This document shows positions 6,348 to 27,073 of a DNA stretch of 64,000 bases, piece after piece (the first letter of the stretch is position 1; each line of letters opens with the position of its first letter). Below the pieces are notes generated by a model. The model did not search any database, was not told the origin of the DNA, and was given only the letters and a program-made list of their open reading frames with translations. The translations under genes and the position numbers were made by a program. The stretch is from Candidatus Babeliales bacterium (GTDB lineage: Bacteria; Babelota; Babeliae; Babelales; JANWKD01): positions 160,001-224,000 of the forward strand of contig CAVRJO010000001.1 in assembly GCA_963722255.1 (NCBI GenBank), given 5' to 3'.

Positions 6348-6543
6348 AAGCTACAAAGGGCATACTACTTCGCATCTAATCTAACAATAAATATCTTTTT
6401 ATTGATAATAGTTTCTTTAAAAAGGCTGGCCATATCGAATTGAAACTAATAAACAAAATGTTAAGACATTATTGGCAAAGCCTGGCGTCAGCCAGGCGTA
6501 GTTTGCCGAGCCAGAAGGCGTTGATAAGCGAAGCCGGACTGGC
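6348..6543. repeat. degenerate copy of the hairpin repeats found at the GIY-YIG/tRNA locus
   Basis: 6348-6434 aligns by eye with 25469-25556; 6491-6543 aligns with 25729-25777. Confidence 0.65.
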
Positions 6544-20220: not shown

Positions 20221-20771
20221 CAGAATACCCCAGGCTTTTCAAGCCCGGGGATGAATGGTCATCCGATCAGAGGAAGTTGAGCAAGGCAGGCCTTTGCGAA
20301 GCTCCGAACAAATGGCATACTTATCTAAATGAGTAAATATTGGAAAAGTGCACATACAAAGCATAAAGTTATGTATCATATTGTTTGGATTCCCAAATAT
20401 AGAAAGAGAGTATTAAAAGGTGAAATAGCTGATCGAATCAAAGAGTTGCTTATCGAATGCGCTGAAGTGAATAGATGGCGTATAGATGAGTTAAATATAC
20501 AGATTGATCATGTACATCTTCTTATACAAATTAAACCAGATATTAGTGTCAGCAAAGCAGTTCAATTACTTAAAGGCAGAAGCAGTAGAATAATAAGAAA
20601 AGAATTTCCAAAATTGGAAGAATTCTACTGGGGTAATAATTTTTGGTGCGAGGGTTTCTTTGTAGAATCGGTTGGAAGTCTAAATGAAGAATCGATTAAG
20701 AATTACATCAAAAATCAATAAAATCTATCCTAATATGCGAAGCCACGGCTTTTAAGCCGTGTGAGCTTCAC
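20221..20771 (+). mobile_element. IS200/IS605-family element carrying tnpA only
   Basis: Left hairpin ccccaggcttttcaagcccgggg; right hairpin cacggcttttaagccgtg ending in ttcac. Confidence 0.8.
20329..20721 (+). CDS. tnpA: Y1 HUH transposase
   Basis: YHIVWIPKYR, DHVHLL, KGRSS, FW..GFF, YIKNQ. Confidence 0.95.
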   Translation: MSKYWKSAHTKHKVMYHIVWIPKYRKRVLKGEIADRIKELLIECAEVNRWRIDELNIQIDHVHLLIQIKPDISVSKAVQLLKGRSSRIIRKEFPKLEEFYWGNNFWCEGFFVESVGSLNEESIKNYIKNQ

Positions 20772-22532: not shown

Positions 22533-23141
22533 TCATTTATGAACAACCAAAAAGTTTTTTGCATTTTCATACCATTGAGGAAAATCTACATATAATTCTG
22601 ATGTTAAACCAAAATTTTCAGCTCCCTTGATATTATAAATATCATCATCCCAAAAAATAATATCTTCTTTCTTTTGCCCTACTATATCCAAAATGCTTTG
22701 AAAAAATGATGGTTCAGGTTTTTTTGACCCTAAATATGCAGAAGAAAAGGATCTATCGAATAATGTCTTTATTCTTTCTTCAAAAAGATTTTTTGTTCTA
22801 TATTTTTCATTATTTGTTGCCAAATAAACGTTAATGCCTTGCTTTCTTAGTTGCTGAATGATAGGCATAAATCTTTGGTCTATTATGTTATATTTCTTAT
22901 CAAACCAAAAAGCCAACAAGTCATCAACATTGCTTTTCCAACCCCATTGTTCAATATATTTGGCAATTTCTTCTTTTAAATCAGCTTTTCCTACAAGACA
23001 TAATTGAAATTCATTTTGAAAAAACGGCCTAGTCATCTCTAATGAAATATTAAACATTCTGGCTAAACGCAAATCAAATCGTTCACCATAAATCAACATT
23101 CCATCCGCATCAAAAATAACTGATTTTATATTCTCTTTCAA
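22533..23141 (-). CDS. HAD-family hydrolase
   Basis: VIFDADG, LATN, KPEP, FWDD motifs. Confidence 0.9.
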   Translation of the reverse strand: MKENIKSVIFDADGMLIYGERFDLRLARMFNISLEMTRPFFQNEFQLCLVGKADLKEEIAKYIEQWGWKSNVDDLLAFWFDKKYNIIDQRFMPIIQQLRKQGINVYLATNNEKYRTKNLFEERIKTLFDRSFSSAYLGSKKPEPSFFQSILDIVGQKKEDIIFWDDDIYNIKGAENFGLTSELYVDFPQWYENAKNFLVVHK

Positions 23142-23175
23142 AATATATACCTTATAATTAGGTTGAGTGAATAAC

Positions 23176-23634
23176 TCAACAAATTCTAGACACTTTTTTA
23201 ATCAAAATCCATTCAAACGATTCAAGCGTACGTTCAATTGTTTCAATCCTACCAATTATTGAATCGAGTAAACAATCTGAATGAAAAAAATCTGGGGACA
23301 ACAGCGTATTGGGTATTTCATCGTACCAATTTTTGTCTTGATTTAAAGAATAAACAGTAGCTTCACAAAATTCAATTCGTTGAAAAATATAAAAATAACC
23401 ATCATTTTCTACAATAGCAAATTTAATTTTAGAATCATGCGAAATAAAAATTATTTGGGCTATTGTACTTGTTGTTAAACCCTTTTGCACTAAATCATTT
23501 TTCATTAAGGATGAACAACCAAAAAGCTCTTCAAGTACCTCAATAAGTTCATCTTTAATCTCTAATGCGTAAATTTGATTTATAGACCCTAGCCCGAACA
23601 TGAAGAAAAAAAATAGGAACAATTTTTTTAACAT
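23176..23634 (-). CDS. secreted hypothetical protein
   Basis: Signal peptide; GGGG SD-like element. Confidence 0.55.
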   Translation of the reverse strand: MLKKLFLFFFFMFGLGSINQIYALEIKDELIEVLEELFGCSSLMKNDLVQKGLTTSTIAQIIFISHDSKIKFAIVENDGYFYIFQRIEFCEATVYSLNQDKNWYDEIPNTLLSPDFFHSDCLLDSIIGRIETIERTLESFEWILIKKVSRIC

Positions 23635-23724
23635 AGCAACCCCAAATAAACAGAAATCATTATTTTTCTAATATTTTTTAATTCATTTAAAGAACTGGCC
23701 CGCCAGGCATTTCAAATATATTAC

Positions 23725-25167
23725 TGTTAGCGCAAAGTGATAAGTTCCTATTATAGCGCAAAGTAAAAAGTTCCGGTTTTTAGGGTAAACTTAATCTTGT
23801 AAACAAAAAGAAAAACTCTAAAAATGCAACGGAACTTATATGGAATATATTACCATGAATCGCAAAGAACGAGAACAGGCAAAAGTGTTTGTTCAGGTTA
23901 AAGAAGGAAAAATGACACAGGCAGAGGCTGCAGCCCGTCTGAGATTTACAGAGCGGTGGGTCAGAGAAAAATATGGAAGATATTGTGAATCTGACGACTT
24001 TGGCCTTGTACATGGCAATAGGGGAAAAGAAAGCCCAAATAGATGGGATCAAGGAGAAGAACGATTGTTAATCTCATTGTTAGAAAGCGATTGGCAAGGC
24101 TTTGGGCCAACCTTTGCGGCTGAAAAACTTAAAGAGTTGCATGGAATAAAGATAAGTCGAGAAGCTGTTAGAAAGGTCATGATTAAGGCAGGAATATGGC
24201 AACCTAAAAAACAGCGCAGCAAGCATCGCAAGCGACGAGAAAGAAGGCGTATGTTTGGCATAATGATTCAGCTTGATGGCTCTCCACATGACTGGTTTGA
24301 AGGGCGTGCTGGGGTATGTACCTTACTTGTTTTTATTGACGATGCTACTGGCCAAATCCTTTGGCTTGAGTTTGCCCCTTCTGAATCGATGCATGCTTTA
24401 ATGACCGCAACTAAAAATTACGTTGAAAAATATGGGATTCCTCAAACTTTTTATACTGACCACGGTTCTGTTTTCCATGTTAATTTGAATAATCAAGAAA
24501 ATATTAAAAAGACCCAATGGGAGCGCGCTTGTAAAGATTTGGGAATTGATGTTATACATGCCAATAGTCCTCAGGCAAAGGGCCGCGTTGAACGTTGCAA
24601 TCAAACCCTTCAAGATCGCCTTATTAAGGAAATGAGACTTGCTGGGATATCATCAATAGATCAAGCAAATAATTATCTGCGAACAAGCAATTATATTGCA
24701 AAGCATAATGCTGCATTTCAAGTTCCTGCTGCCCAAGAAGGCGATGCCCATGCTAGCGCTCAATCATTTGATTTAAACGATATATTTAGCACTCAAGAGA
24801 CTCGTATTCTTACGAATGATTTTACTATTACCTACCAAAAACAGATTTTTCAATTAAGCGATCAGCAAAAAACAATCATTTTTCCAAAAAATACCATTGT
24901 TGTTAAAGTACATTTAAATGGAACCATAAAACTGTGGATTCGAAAAACAGAACTTTCTTTTAGCGAAATCTACCAACCCCCCAAATTCAGGAGAAAAAAA
25001 TATCTGACTGTATACCAAGAAAGCCTTCAAAAAATAGCCAACGTTTGGCAGGCTGGTTGCCCCCTAGTGAGAGTAGGTTGAAGCCGGTCGCGCCGGCCGT
25101 GGAGGCGCTTTAATGTTAGGAACTTTTTACTTTGCTAAATACCGGAACTTTTCACGTTGCGTTGACA
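23725..25167 (+). mobile_element. IS1202-family insertion sequence with a 17-bp target duplication
   Basis: TGT...ACA ends; imperfect IRs tgttagcgcaaagtgataagttcc / ggaacttttcacgttgcgttgaca with internal repeats; direct repeat catttcaaatatattac at 23708-23724 and 25168-25184. Confidence 0.9.
23840..25081 (+). CDS. DDE transposase (IS1202/ISNCY type)
   Basis: HGNRGK, GPTFAAEKL, QLDGSPHDWFEGR, IDDATG, YTD, PQAKGRVER..QTLQDRL. Confidence 0.92.
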   Translation: MEYITMNRKEREQAKVFVQVKEGKMTQAEAAARLRFTERWVREKYGRYCESDDFGLVHGNRGKESPNRWDQGEERLLISLLESDWQGFGPTFAAEKLKELHGIKISREAVRKVMIKAGIWQPKKQRSKHRKRRERRRMFGIMIQLDGSPHDWFEGRAGVCTLLVFIDDATGQILWLEFAPSESMHALMTATKNYVEKYGIPQTFYTDHGSVFHVNLNNQENIKKTQWERACKDLGIDVIHANSPQAKGRVERCNQTLQDRLIKEMRLAGISSIDQANNYLRTSNYIAKHNAAFQVPAAQEGDAHASAQSFDLNDIFSTQETRILTNDFTITYQKQIFQLSDQQKTIIFPKNTIVVKVHLNGTIKLWIRKTELSFSEIYQPPKFRRKKYLTVYQESLQKIANVWQAGCPLVRVG

Positions 25168-25180
25168 CATTTCAAATATA

Positions 25181-25423
25181 TTACCATAATCTTCTTTTTG
25201 CAAATGCATACCCAGACCCAGATTTAATATATTTTTCAAACTCTAATGCCTTAGCTTCCTCATCAAATCCAATAGATGATATCAATTTCCATGGCTTATA
25301 ATCGGAAGTATAAACAGAACCACCTTCATTATGCTTTTGTAACCGCTCTCTTACATTGGTAGTAAAACCAACATAGGTTTTATTGGGATCTTTTAACGAT
25401 TTTAATAAATAGACATAGAACAT
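25181..25423 (-). CDS. small stand-alone GIY-YIG nuclease
   Basis: MFYVYLLKS...TYVGFT...RLQKHN.G...YT..YKPW...FEKYIKSGSG. Confidence 0.92.
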   Translation of the reverse strand: MFYVYLLKSLKDPNKTYVGFTTNVRERLQKHNEGGSVYTSDYKPWKLISSIGFDEEAKALEFEKYIKSGSGYAFAKRRLW

Positions 25424-25575
25424 AAGAAAACAGATTTAAAGTTATAATAAGACTGCCCTACTACGCTAAAGCTACGAAGGACATACTTCGCTTTTTAGTC
25501 ACAATAACCATCTTTTTAATAAAATTTTACTTCCTTTAAAAGGATGGCCTGCCATACGAAGCTTTACGCGAAGTA

Positions 25576-25653
25576 TGGCGGAGGCTGATGGGACTCGAAC
25601 CCACGACCTTCCGCGTGACAGGCGGACGCTCTAACCAACTGAGCTACAGCTCC
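25576..25653 (-). tRNA. tRNA-Asp(GTC)
   Basis: Cloverleaf GGAGCTGTAGCTCAGTTGGTTAGAGC...CTGTCAC...TTCGAGT...GCCA; one extra C in the 3' acceptor strand. Confidence 0.9.
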
Positions 25654-25773
25654 AACTAAGATTATTCCACTATGGCGTCAGTTCTACTACGCTCTATGAG
25701 CTACGAAGAACAAGCAGAAAACTGGCCTGCCATTCGAAGTTTGCCAAGCCGGAAGGCCTGGATAAACGTAGAA

Positions 25774-25849
25774 TGGCTCCTCGGGCTGGACTCGAACCAG
25801 CGACCTAACGATTAACAGTCGTTTGCTCTACCAACTGAGCTACCGAGGA
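25774..25849 (-). tRNA. tRNA-Asn(GTT)
   Basis: TCCTCGGTAGCTCAG...CTGTTAA...TTCGAGT...CCGAGGAGCCA. Confidence 0.95.
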
Positions 25850-25934
25850 ACAAATTTCAACTATTTCAAAAACTGGCCTACTTTATTATTGATATCGAAG
25901 AATGGCCTGCCAGTCATTTCTGAGGGAAATGTAC

Positions 25935-26010
25935 TGGTGGGCGGTACTGGACTCGAACCAGTGACCCCCAGTTTGTAAGACTGATGCTCTACCAACTGAG
26001 CTAACCGCCC
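25935..26010 (-). tRNA. tRNA-Val(TAC)
   Basis: GGGCGGTTAGCTCAG...CTTACAA...TTCGAGT...ACCGCCCACCA. Confidence 0.95.
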
Positions 26011-26152
26011 ACTATCAAAGTGGACAGAACAAATTCTAAAGAAAAAGATTAAAAAAGTCAAAAAAGAATTCATAAATATTTATAAATCATCACATTTTAT
26101 TATAGACTACTATAAAACCTAACCACGTATGAGACAATCACTAAAGGATTCT

Positions 26153-27073
26153 ATGGCAAAAACCGCTGATTTTTTCAAAAACATCTTCATTCTACTGCTT
26201 GTACTTCAATTTGCTCCAATGCTCTTTGAAAGCATCAAAAAACAGTACAGCCGTTATTTTGAACCACATACTAAAGTCGGGTATCTAGCAATTAAAGGGA
26301 TTCTCCTTAATTCATCATATTATGTTCATCATCTTAAGAAGCTTTTTGAAGACAAAGAAGTTAAAGCTATTCTTGTATATATTGAATCACCCGGTGGCGC
26401 AGCAGGTACAGCGGAAGCAATTGCGCATGAAATCGAACAACTCAAAAAGGAACATCCTAAACCAATTATAACGATAGCGGAAAATATTGTTGCTTCAGGT
26501 GGTTACTATATTGCAGCTGCAACAGATTATATTATTGCATCTCCTTCAACGCTTGTTGGTAGCATTGGCGTCAGCATTCCGGGCCAATTTAAGTTGCATG
26601 ATTTTATTGAGCAGTACAAAATACATTATAACGTCATAAAAGCCGGAGAATATAAAGCAGTTACTGATCCTTTTGCTGAAGTAACACCAGGGCAAAATGC
26701 TCTTTTAACCAATGTTGCTGAAAGCAGTTATGAAAACTTTCTTGAACATGTTTCTTCACATCGTCCTAAATTGGAACTAGAACATGCTGCATCGTGGGCT
26801 GATGGTAAAATTTTCACAGGAAAACAGGCTCTTTCATTAGGCCTCATCGATCTCATTGGATCACAATCAAATGCTCTTCAAAAAATTAAAGAGATGACCA
26901 TTATTGAAGGCACCATTGAATGGATAAAACCTGAAAAGGTTTCCAACTTTTGGACACTGTTATTTGGTTCGCCTGATTACACTGATGGCAGTGATTCATT
27001 CATGACAAGAATGGTTAATTCACTATGCCTCACCCTTGAAGAACGATATGGATCGGTAAAAGGAATTATGTAG
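26153..27073 (+). CDS. sppA: signal peptide peptidase A (S49)
   Basis: IESPGG, ASGGYYIA, GSIGV, KAGEYK, DGKIFTG..A..LGLID. Confidence 0.9.
   Translation: MAKTADFFKNIFILLLVLQFAPMLFESIKKQYSRYFEPHTKVGYLAIKGILLNSSYYVHHLKKLFEDKEVKAILVYIESPGGAAGTAEAIAHEIEQLKKEHPKPIITIAENIVASGGYYIAAATDYIIASPSTLVGSIGVSIPGQFKLHDFIEQYKIHYNVIKAGEYKAVTDPFAEVTPGQNALLTNVAESSYENFLEHVSSHRPKLELEHAASWADGKIFTGKQALSLGLIDLIGSQSNALQKIKEMTIIEGTIEWIKPEKVSNFWTLLFGSPDYTDGSDSFMTRMVNSLCLTLEERYGSVKGIM

Follow-up and report, generated by a model that had tools for sequence, protein, structure and literature searches.

Hairpins anchored to the CCA of tRNA and tmRNA genes and a stand-alone GIY-YIG nuclease gene: a candidate mobile cassette in a Candidatus Babeliales genome and in other phyla

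Comparison with described systems

Palindromic repeats with a partner gene, free-standing GIY-YIG genes beside tRNA genes and genomic islands at tRNA gene ends have each been described. A stretch of 64,000 nucleotides from a Candidatus Babeliales genome (referred to as the window) resembles all of these in part. On its minus strand, the genes for tRNA-Val, tRNA-Asn and tRNA-Asp are each followed by a hairpin whose stem takes in the CCA of the tRNA itself, and the Asp hairpin is followed by the gene for an 80-residue stand-alone GIY-YIG nuclease. The hairpins and the nuclease gene probably form a selfish mobile cassette that is associated with a nuclease and from which solo hairpins derive. The genome (G000; 1.62 Mb, 34% GC, two contigs, 36 tRNA genes and two genes for transfer-messenger RNA (tmRNA)) contains the window as G000:C1:160001-224000. 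It was analyzed together with 40 relatives (41 genomes in total, G001 being a congener) and with other phyla, for which one genome per species was scanned with a protein alignment; more than 580 stretches matched, and the best 80 loci were analyzed. Nearly all of the genomes examined are metagenome bins.

The arrangement parallels that of repetitive extragenic palindromes (REP, REPIN) and their RAYT transposases. Many palindromes with conserved structure, homogenised within the genome, go with one or a few small nuclease-type genes that they flank, and solo hairpins far outnumber the gene (12-21 matches per genome to the tRNA-anchored pattern defined below in G000 and close relatives, median identity 0.91-0.96). 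The enzyme class is, however, different. The partner is a hydrolytic GIY-YIG enzyme and not an HUH transposase, and the hairpins keep to the CCA of tRNA and tmRNA genes instead of being spread over intergenic DNA. The Y1 (HUH) transposase genes of this genome are multi-copy and have other hairpins, unlike a single-copy RAYT gene flanked by the same palindromes, and they do not co-occur with the tRNA hairpins.

Insertion sequences (IS) of the IS200/IS605 type are similar in having imperfect subterminal hairpins (here with a conserved 3x3 bubble) and in inserting directly 3' of a short fixed sequence (here CCA). The flanking CCA can pair with TGG at the hairpin foot, a possible parallel to the guide-sequence pairing in IS608, and the element ends in the related short sequence GCCA. 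The cassette, however, codes for neither TnpA nor TnpB, and GIY-YIG enzymes work without a covalent intermediate with DNA. SegB is a free-standing GIY-YIG homing endonuclease gene in the tRNA gene cluster of phage T4. As with such homing endonucleases (Seg, I-TevI), a GIY-YIG domain gene lies beside tRNA genes and is present or absent between congeners (at tRNA-Gly(gcc) and tRNA-Gln). The protein from the window differs in that it has 80 residues, lacks a C-terminal DNA-binding extension and has a fold nearest to Slx1/HIGLE; it is chromosomal across phyla, is not found on phages at E 1e-5 and comes with conserved hairpin modules.

Integron attC sites offer another possible parallel, in that the hairpin structure and its unpaired bases are conserved while the sequence is free, and modules stand head to tail, ending in the same short core. 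The anchor here is instead a tRNA end, and no integron integrase is seen by the modules, although none was specifically sought. Genomic islands at tRNA and tmRNA genes share the target class and occur in G000 as well, but the cassette lacks a recombinase, is smaller by a factor of 20, begins behind the CCA rather than replacing the 3' part of the tRNA and is built of hairpins. An integrase att site was considered and rejected, as the cassette is devoid of a recombinase. The best profile and fold matches of the protein are to the SLX1/At-HIGLE/UPF0213 group (BH0048 and EF2693 in UPF0213), of which it is the minimal stand-alone form (PMC1564403). Enzymes of this lineage cut branched and cruciform DNA (PMC9071465). 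In contrast to SLX1, there is no RING domain, SLX4-type partner or repair context; the gene is multi-copy, partly pseudogenised and fixed behind tRNA and tmRNA genes.

Rfam 15 has no family in the interval between tRNA and open reading frame (ORF) at E <=1 (window 23000-27000 and eight loci of several phyla); the matches there are tRNA and tmRNA, plus overlapping sub-threshold ones. Full-text literature searches (subscription journals and supplements not covered) turned up no GIY-YIG gene or hairpin family behind tRNA or tmRNA genes. This enzyme class, target and syntax appear to be undescribed for selfish nuclease genes or for hairpin repeats with a partner gene. They would add an unannotated, phylum-spanning element to tRNA and tmRNA gene ends, although few genes have been studied as intensively as these. 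The element accounts for the near-identical structured trailers that are found, in some reduced intracellular bacteria, on half of the tRNA genes, and such trailers matter for tRNA annotation, for the interpretation of 3'-end processing and for genome assembly.

Anatomy of the cassette and its link to tRNA and tmRNA genes

A complete cassette measures about 0.4-0.5 kb, and the copy behind tRNA-Asp is of this kind (Table 1). On the view that the cassette behaves as a selfish element, the window is read as one full cassette (Asp) and two solo modules (Val and Asn). The three hairpin sequences that had been quoted in the first-pass annotation, which was made from the sequence alone, are present as written on the minus strand behind these tRNAs. 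The Val stem, CCAGTACATTTC..GAAATGACTGG, includes the CCA of the tRNA. Class A hairpins of this type also follow the Arg-tcg, Phe, Leu-caa, Arg-acg and Ser-tga tRNAs of the genome. The Asn hairpin (class B) consists of an outer stem (CCATTC/GAATGG), a 3x3 bubble (TAC/TTC) and a long inner hairpin, which recurs behind four other tRNAs and both tmRNAs. The Asp hairpin (class C) reads CCATAC-TTC-GC-GTAAA-GC-TTC-GTATGG, and its class is also found behind Ser-cga, Met and Leu-gag. All three have the tail CAGGCCA and fold as single-stranded DNA (z -2.4 to -4.2 relative to shuffles). The calls for tRNA-Asp by ARAGORN and Rfam end 4 nt early; with its GCCA, the true end is at 25576.

Table 1. Features of the tRNA-Val/Asn/Asp region and an additional module copy, in window coordinates
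Feature	Position	Strand	Basis and remarks
Promoter-like site TTGACT-17-TAGAAT	26033..26061	-	Consensus scan, 10/12 matches (consensus match only); upstream of tRNA-Val
tRNA-Val(tac)	25935..26010	-	ARAGORN; Rfam RF00005, 73.4 bits
Hairpin module behind tRNA-Val, class A, perfect stem	25903..25937	-	Sequence; DNA fold -8.4 kcal/mol, z -3.9; CCA..TGG 25910-25937, tail 25903-25909
tRNA-Asn(gtt)	25774..25849	-	ARAGORN; Rfam
Hairpin module behind tRNA-Asn, class B	25723..25776	-	Sequence; DNA fold -13 kcal/mol, z -4.2; CCA..TGG 25730-25776, tail 25723-25729
Inverted-type hairpin GTTC-TTCGTA-GC..GC-GTAGTA-GAAC, then TGACGCCA	25673..25711	-	Sequence; Asn-Asp spacer
tRNA-Asp(gtc), including encoded GCCA	25576..25653	-	ARAGORN and Rfam give 25580-25653; sequence continues GCCA
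Hairpin module behind tRNA-Asp, class C	25545..25578	-	Sequence; DNA fold z -2.4; whole-leader RNA fold z -3.0; CCA..TGG 25552-25578, tail 25545-25551
Distal complement GCGAAGTATG	25482..25491	-	Perfect reverse complement of CATACTTCGC at the tRNA end
Second, inverted-type hairpin GTCC-TTCGTA-GC-TTTA-GC-GTAGTA-GGGC	25455..25482	-	Directly before the ORF
GIY-YIG nuclease gene, 80 aa, stand-alone, SLX1/UPF0213 lineage	25181..25423	-	Pfam PF01541, E 2.8e-15
ISNCY-family insertion sequence	23724..25167	+	Transposase NF033594, E 4e-120; rve domain below Pfam cut-off
Cassette end: right half and tail of class A hairpin (GAAATG-CCTGG-CGGGCCAG), then T-rich TTCTTTAAATG	23695..23713	-	
Class B-type hairpin module with tail TGGCTGACGCCAG, not behind a tRNA	6482..6541	-	BLAST of trailers against the genome; context; sequence

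The hairpin in the Asn-Asp spacer has the grammar of the one that precedes the GIY-YIG ORF, and homologues of the latter precede this ORF in relatives and other phyla; taken as an isolated DNA strand, the hairpin before the ORF folds no better than shuffles (z 0.16). The cassette tail is interrupted by an ISNCY-family IS with a flanking 16-bp duplication, TAATATATTTGAAATG (25168-25183 and 23708-23723), and this IS is taken to be a secondary insertion. As the first-pass annotation had noticed, a hairpin sequence comes to lie just past the stop codon of the nuclease gene when the IS is removed (CCTGGCGGGCCAG, 23695-23707, 13 nt after the stop). The cassette end is a 90% match to the trailer of tRNA-Arg(tcg), and other copies of the gene also end in a right hairpin arm followed by TGGC-N-GCCA.

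For the whole genome, a fixed rule was applied (CCA plus 3 nt pairing as a 6-nt stem with at most one mismatch, then [CT]N2-4G[CT][CT]A). It finds 16 of the 38 tRNA and tmRNA ends, compared to 352 of 37,566 CCA sites genome-wide (0.94%). By eye, the same trailer architecture is recognized behind 19 of the 36 tRNAs, as a decayed copy behind tRNA-Tyr and behind both tmRNAs. (Hairpin flips in G001, co-change of the anchor and the tRNA-like ends of the remaining other-phyla loci were likewise assessed by eye.) The hairpins fall into four or five sequence classes. The motif TGGCAGGCCA has eight copies in the genome, and six of them stand 21-42 nt after a tRNA and on its strand; the other two are the complement of the tRNA-Trp 3' end and a copy just upstream of another GIY-YIG gene. 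Module copies away from tRNAs exist, and most of these are still preceded by CCA.

The two tmRNA genes called by ARAGORN are 2 kb apart (G000:C1:795232-795599 and 797383-797822, both on the minus strand) and share their tRNA-like 3' part, with a class B hairpin module behind each. For the second one, the predicted tag is unusually long; this gene may have arisen by duplication or be in decay.

The cassettes follow a common plan. Segment a, NCCA-X-CTWCGC (X being 3-6 nt, including the C that opens CTWCG), is followed by a GC-closed inner hairpin of variable length and by segment b, GCTWCG-X'-TGG, so that a and b form a hairpin (H1) with a symmetric 3x3 bubble. After the tail of H1 (C-N2-4-GCCA) and a spacer comes segment c, GCGAAG-X'-TG, a perfect complement of a, and then an inverted-type hairpin with GAA/GAA bubbles (H3), from which 10-40 nt lead to the ATG. 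Segment c and H3 are nested inside the H1 loop in some loci. The GIY-YIG gene is the sole ORF; neither a Y1 transposase nor a recombinase is encoded in the cassette. The hairpin module and the nuclease module both terminate in GCCA, which fits the earlier idea that NCCA...GCCA resembles a short direct repeat. In 20 of 111 copies, the upstream region shares a direct repeat of at least 12 nt with the bases that immediately follow the stop codon; for mismatched loci, the figure is 4 of 111.

Pairing is kept while the sequence varies, as had been suggested from the three hairpins of the window. For the three positions that follow the CCA, 74 elements from the analyzed loci give 222 cells, of which 196 are paired as expected, compared to 18-68 of 222 when the partner is slid. 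At positions +1 and +2, each of the four Watson-Crick pair types is represented. A contiguous stem of at least 5 bp is present in 52 elements, which have 17 different triplets; their bubble is TTC/TTC in 24 and TTC/TAC in 19, and the CTWCG-type hairpin has the same orientation relative to the tRNA in 51 of 52. Segment c (10-mer complement, at most one mismatch) is found in 42 of the 74 elements but in none of 74 reversed controls. At other-phyla loci where the tRNA has no encoded CCA, anchor and partner change together (e.g., CCG...CGG). Universal features are the anchor at the terminus, the bubble with CTWCG and the distal complement. The constant TGGC-AGGCCA, which had been put forward as the shared architecture, is present in all three hairpins of the window but is a habit of this lineage.

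It could be argued that such an arrangement arises by chance or by mis-assembly at repeated tRNA genes, the more so as most of the genomes examined are metagenome-assembled. The probability of this is negligible: the same syntax and covariation are found in more than 100 independent assemblies, some of them single-contig genomes or cultured strains, unique flanking genes are conserved, and a reversed-pattern control gives 0-1 matches per genome. Parts of the stretch were found in 20 sequencing runs, in all cases as contigs; each run contains at most 16% of the sampled words of the stretch, and these are probably tRNA parts.

The coupling of hairpins and nuclease gene, first proposed from a single locus, proved to be real and conserved across phyla. 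Six PF01541 matches exist in G000: four belong to one subfamily of the 80-aa class, a fifth is from another small subfamily, and the last is part of a 428-aa open frame. Each of the four 80-aa subfamily genes is directly behind hairpin modules. Three of them are not behind an intact tRNA, but two of these are preceded by remnants of tRNA 3' ends (GGGCACACCA, Arg-tct-like, and GGTAACGCCA, Glu-like), the intact tRNAs being about 9.5 kb upstream; the third (C1:460793) is preceded by GTGACACCA, which could not be assigned. The subfamily is present in 30 of the 41 genomes, with 0-6 matches per genome, some of which have stop codons. At strong loci (tblastn E <1e-10; G000 and 25 relatives), a co-oriented tRNA or tmRNA gene is found 15-460 nt upstream in 23 of 26 cases (Gln, Asp, Glu, Thr, Ser, Arg, Ala or tmRNA), and the trailers obey one grammar.

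Among the best 80 loci from other phyla, 57 have a co-oriented tRNA or tmRNA gene less than 400 nt upstream (ARAGORN). Of the remaining 23, most have a 3' end that resembles that of a tRNA or tmRNA, with the hairpin behind it, and at least eight have less than 500 nt of upstream sequence. The bin labels of these 80 loci include Alpha- and Deltaproteobacteria, Verrucomicrobia, Nitrospirae, Acidobacteria, Planctomycetes, Saccharibacteria, Bacteroidetes, Ignavibacteria, Omnitrophica and others, and the GC content of the loci ranges from 0.27 to 0.70. Aquisalinus luteolus and Nitratireductor rhodophyticola are among the cultured carriers of the gene. The strict syntax (CC[AG]-X-CTWCG with a later complement) is found in 70 of 111 gene copies; with the upstream sequence reversed, it is found in 2 of 111. 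A partner could be identified for 80 of 104 intact copies (loci L002-L110 and G000), namely 23 tmRNAs and 57 tRNAs of 11 isotypes. On a tree of the 104 proteins, tRNA identity changes 41 times (52.4 +/- 1.7 when shuffled), which points to partial site fidelity only, in a tree that is based on 80 residues and in which related genomes share labels.

It should be noted that tmRNA accounts for 23 of these 80 partners even though a genome has one tmRNA gene compared to some 40 tRNA genes.

The 80-aa protein belongs to the SLX1/UPF0213 lineage and is nearer to Slx1 and UPF0213 than to UvrC or I-TevI. The Pfam match (Table 1) confirms the domain assignment of the first-pass annotation. In an alignment of 22 sequences, Y5, Y17, R27, H31, N32 and E63 are invariant; Y5, Y17, R27, H31 and E63 presumably are the catalytic Tyr, Tyr, Arg, His and Glu of GIY-YIG enzymes. 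Profile searches match the UPF0213 structures 1zg2 (8e-10) and 1ywl as well as Slx1 (1.5e-9). The AlphaFold model (pLDDT 94.9) is a single compact domain. Its top Foldseek matches are At-HIGLE and Slx1 (query-normalised TM-score 0.71-0.74, E 3e-5 to 1e-3), while I-TevI (E 0.49) and UvrC (E about 0.5) are weak matches. I-TevI prefers a CNNNG cleavage motif, which CTWCG would presumably fit.

Prokaryotic stand-alone Slx1-like domains were described as the minimal form of the fold by Dunin-Horkawicz et al. 2006 (PMC1564403). According to this survey, prokaryotic Slx1-like domains are fused to a TrmH-like tRNA methyltransferase or adjoin COG4123 methyltransferases, and a role in RNA metabolism was suggested; the survey makes no mention of adjacency to tRNA genes (PMC1564403). 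As to activity, branched DNA is a substrate of At-HIGLE, whose catalytic domain on its own can nick a plasmid cruciform (PMC9071465). The 80-aa protein is not covered by any NCBIfam model. We take COG4123 to be the tRNA methyltransferase TrmN6. The UPF0213 structures 1zg2 and 1ywl have been released since 2005, and to our knowledge stand-alone UPF0213 proteins have no assigned function. CCA-anchored hairpins with a CTWCG bubble offer a concrete candidate substrate for these orphan SLX1-like nucleases.

Turnover of the hairpins and the case for a selfish element

The distribution of the hairpins was assessed with a tRNA-anchored pattern (T-loop, N15, CCA, N14-50, TGGC-N2-4-GCCA), which has 0-21 matches per genome among the 41 genomes (0-1 for the reversed pattern). 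It is present in 27 of the 30 genomes that have the 80-aa GIY-YIG subfamily and absent from 7 of the 11 that lack it. As the 41 genomes are related, co-occurrence is given as counts without a statistical test. Of the four genomes with the pattern but without the subfamily, one has a match that is not a tRNA, and G013 has a small GIY-YIG gene according to Pfam. In three families, one sampled genome has both hairpins and nuclease gene, and the other has neither.

Filled and empty sites, the comparison of which had been proposed in the first-pass annotation, are found between the congeners, and the insertions start right after the CCA. At tRNA-Gly(gcc), G000 is empty, with a spacer of 184 nt to the conserved downstream gene, while G001 has a full cassette in a spacer of 538 nt. 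The difference begins right after the CCA, and the G001 cassette ends in GCAGCCA followed by a T-rich stretch that resembles the H1 tail. At tRNA-Gln, the gene is present in G001, while only H1 and a decayed segment c are found in G000. The tRNA-His site is empty in G000 and filled in G001. Orthologous Val, Asn and Asp tRNAs bear different hairpin classes in the two genomes. The tRNA-Asp locus of G001 is not a clean empty site, as other DNA lies downstream, with an ATPase-like ORF and, in inverted orientation, a copy of the IS found in the window.

Within a genome, the hairpins are homogenised. The median identity to the nearest neighbour is 0.96 in G001 (at least 0.95 for 12 of 21) and 0.91 in G000. 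In G014, which lacks the nuclease subfamily, it is 0.84, with none of 11 reaching 0.95, a comparison that rests on this one genome. Hairpins have also been flipped: 4 of the 13 class A hairpins of G001 are exact reverse complements of others, and in a further one only the loop is inverted.

It is this combination that leads us to regard the cassette as probably selfish. It is patchy, multi-copy and partly broken, is about as similar across phyla as among paralogs (protein identity 54-59% to loci of other phyla with a locus GC of 0.48-0.60, compared to 47-56% to its own paralogs), occupies one precise type of site and has many solo repeats. By analogy, the solo hairpins behind tRNA-Val, tRNA-Asn and about half of the other tRNAs may correspond to REPs or miniature inverted-repeat elements (MITEs) beside an autonomous partner, or they may be footprints of ORF loss.

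Several observations weigh against such an element. G014 (99% complete, two contigs) has 11 tRNA hairpins, while its only GIY-YIG match is in a 430-aa open frame; hairpins thus persist without the nuclease. Conversely, G018, G019 and G024 have GIY-YIG matches without a pattern match. Genomes devoid of both features are the smallest ones (0.8-1.1 Mb), and genome reduction may be all that lies behind this joint absence. Apart from one pair at 81%, the GIY-YIG paralogs of any one genome have no DNA similarity, and no other recent whole-cassette duplicate that would define the ends was found; the paralogs are therefore old, and the gene itself is not actively spreading here. The protein was not found in phage or plasmid collections (tblastn, E 1e-5). 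In five gene-carrying genomes from other phyla, the strict tRNA-hairpin pattern has 0-1 matches each, though it also missed some known loci and is thus too strict to gauge solo copies there. The other-phyla loci were chosen through the GIY-YIG gene and are therefore uninformative on hairpins without the gene. A strand-specific role, e.g., in RNA, would also yield the near-fixed orientation of the CTWCG-type hairpin (51 of 52). As a GIY-YIG nuclease is hydrolytic and cannot ligate DNA, any movement would have to depend on repair by the host. Finally, we infer the mechanism of movement; cleavage and mobility are predictions from the sequence and from relatives. The first-pass annotation had proposed a miniature element at tRNA ends that is mobilised or maintained by the nuclease. 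The tRNA-end element tied to the GIY-YIG gene is borne out by co-occurrence, filled and empty sites, homogenisation and flips, but mobilisation by the protein is a conjecture, and the 11 hairpins of G014 stand in a genome without a stand-alone GIY-YIG gene.

How might such a cassette move? By analogy with its relatives, the 80-aa protein may cleave DNA in a structure-selective manner. The nick or break would fall on the CTWCG bubble or the CCA/TGG foot once the hairpin or cruciform is extruded, and host repair would then copy a module from another locus into the break via the CCA...TGG...CCA microhomologies. The gene might be expressed by read-through from the tRNA promoter. A mobile element that uses a nuclease only, with a minimal SLX1-like enzyme that breaks DNA at the hairpin or its foot and a 3-nt microhomology for copying the module, is a tentative proposal, and we would not call it likely. 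It would explain the exact start after the CCA, the closing TGG, the terminal GCCA and the chains in which GCCA recreates the target, the two orientations with their flip-flop and the recombinase-free colonisation of any tRNA or tmRNA gene. If correct, the hairpin would be the first natural substrate for the large orphan UPF0213 family, and microhomology- and structure-guided copying would be a new way in which DNA is moved by a nuclease alone.

A function at the RNA level has to be considered as well. The promoter-like site upstream of tRNA-Val is the best on the tRNA strand (a weaker 9/12 site lies in the Val trailer) and, as a consensus match, is likely to be the promoter of the Val-Asn-Asp(-GIY) unit. 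A consensus scan of the region found no promoter-like site directly before the GIY-YIG ORF. The only terminator-like site on the tRNA strand ahead of the ORF is at the Asn tail (25731-25713), within the spacer between Asn and Asp, which leaves none between tRNA-Asp and the ORF. The tRNAs and the nuclease mRNA could thus form one transcript, in which the hairpin would mask the CCA and give the released RNA a paired 5' end. Arm switching between the local imperfect and the distal perfect partner would then be a switch for processing or expression, and the GIY-YIG protein might act on the precursor. In the extreme form, the hairpins would hold tRNAs hostage until the nuclease releases them. We consider this rather unlikely, even though a number of features agree with it: the hairpin starts at the processing site in every phylum, its orientation to the tRNA is nearly fixed, the two mutually exclusive partners of the CCA-proximal arm are conserved, and the leader folds better than shuffles (z -3.0). 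The tRNA methyltransferase fusions reported for Slx1-like domains and the role in RNA metabolism suggested for them also point in this direction (PMC1564403).

On the other side, there is no asymmetry in favor of a transcript strand. G-U pairs are equally frequent in tRNA sense (22 of 795) and on the opposite strand (22 of 790), and in 51 of 62 hairpins the better fold is that of the opposite strand, though such strand measures do not cleanly separate RNA from DNA function. The class A flips, loop included, preserve the symmetry of the DNA but not the RNA sequence. The patchy distribution (0-21 per genome) and the rapid turnover between congeners are unlike a host processing signal, the same modules are found away from tRNAs, and an RNase activity of GIY-YIG proteins is not described in the accessible parts of the literature considered.

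It is also conceivable, but improbable, that the hairpins are ordinary elements, either terminators of tRNA genes or REP-type palindromes moved by Y1 transposases, with the GIY-YIG gene simply landing beside them. Many tails in this lineage precede a T run (GCCAGTTTTTT), and the terminator-like site at the Asn tail has been mentioned. The hairpins, however, sit between the tRNAs of a single Val-Asn-Asp cluster, GC-rich phyla keep the architecture without a T run, and the stem takes in the CCA of the tRNA and is interrupted by a conserved bubble. A plain terminator was rejected as the main reading: any T run comes after the tail instead of the main stem, so that the combination of a GC-rich hairpin and an immediate U tract is not found.

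As for palindromes moved by Y1 transposases, the first-pass annotation had stated that no HUH transposase is present. This is not correct: the genome has 11 matches to PF01797, two of them with stop codons, and one is in the window itself (20359-20718, plus strand), 4.5 kb from the locus. The others are at C2:651384, C1:718312, C1:761156, C1:655406, C1:151908, C2:79929, C2:669475, C1:703014, C1:159512 and C1:146107. They represent a few groups of near-identical, multi-copy IS200/IS605-like units, whose own end hairpins are unrelated to the tRNA hairpins. Y1 genes are also absent from 11 of the 28 genomes with at least two tRNA hairpins, e.g., G035 (12 hairpins) and G011 (8), and for these two reasons they were rejected as hairpin partners. 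The GIY-YIG ORF, in contrast, is physically joined to hairpins in many phyla.

Neighboring mobile elements and further repeats

The IS that interrupts the cassette of the window has a counterpart in G001 (L111 1727-2980, 81% identity). It is located about 960 nt downstream of tRNA-Asp, in opposite orientation and in different surroundings.

An island of about 9.5 kb (in locus L117, G000:C1:448500-461200) lies between tRNA-Arg(tct) (C1:448552-448628) and a 10-nt remnant of its 3' end, and this remnant precedes a GIY-YIG cassette. The DNA after the tRNA opens with a large serine recombinase (L117 ORF 115-1584, minus strand), followed by primase-like and D5/VapE-like helicase genes, which indicates that an integrated island has displaced the cassette. 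The trailers of tRNA-Glu and tRNA-Arg(cct) resemble the island junction, which suggests two further, partly decayed islands.

The fifth small GIY-YIG gene of the genome, which is from the other subfamily (G000:C1:725306-725521, plus strand), is flanked by different inverted repeats, GGATCCCTACGTCACTTC..., and a further repeat family with the ends ACTGGGTCACCAC is found nearby. The class B inner hairpin, GCTTATCCAGGCCTTCCGGCTTGGCAAGC, also occurs within composite repeats that are bounded by the inverted ends TAACTGGGT..CC / GTGGTGACCCAGT (G000:C2:460714, C2:498353, C2:508026, C2:278940, C1:572199 and C1:735794). Modules are thus common to several repeat families of this genome.

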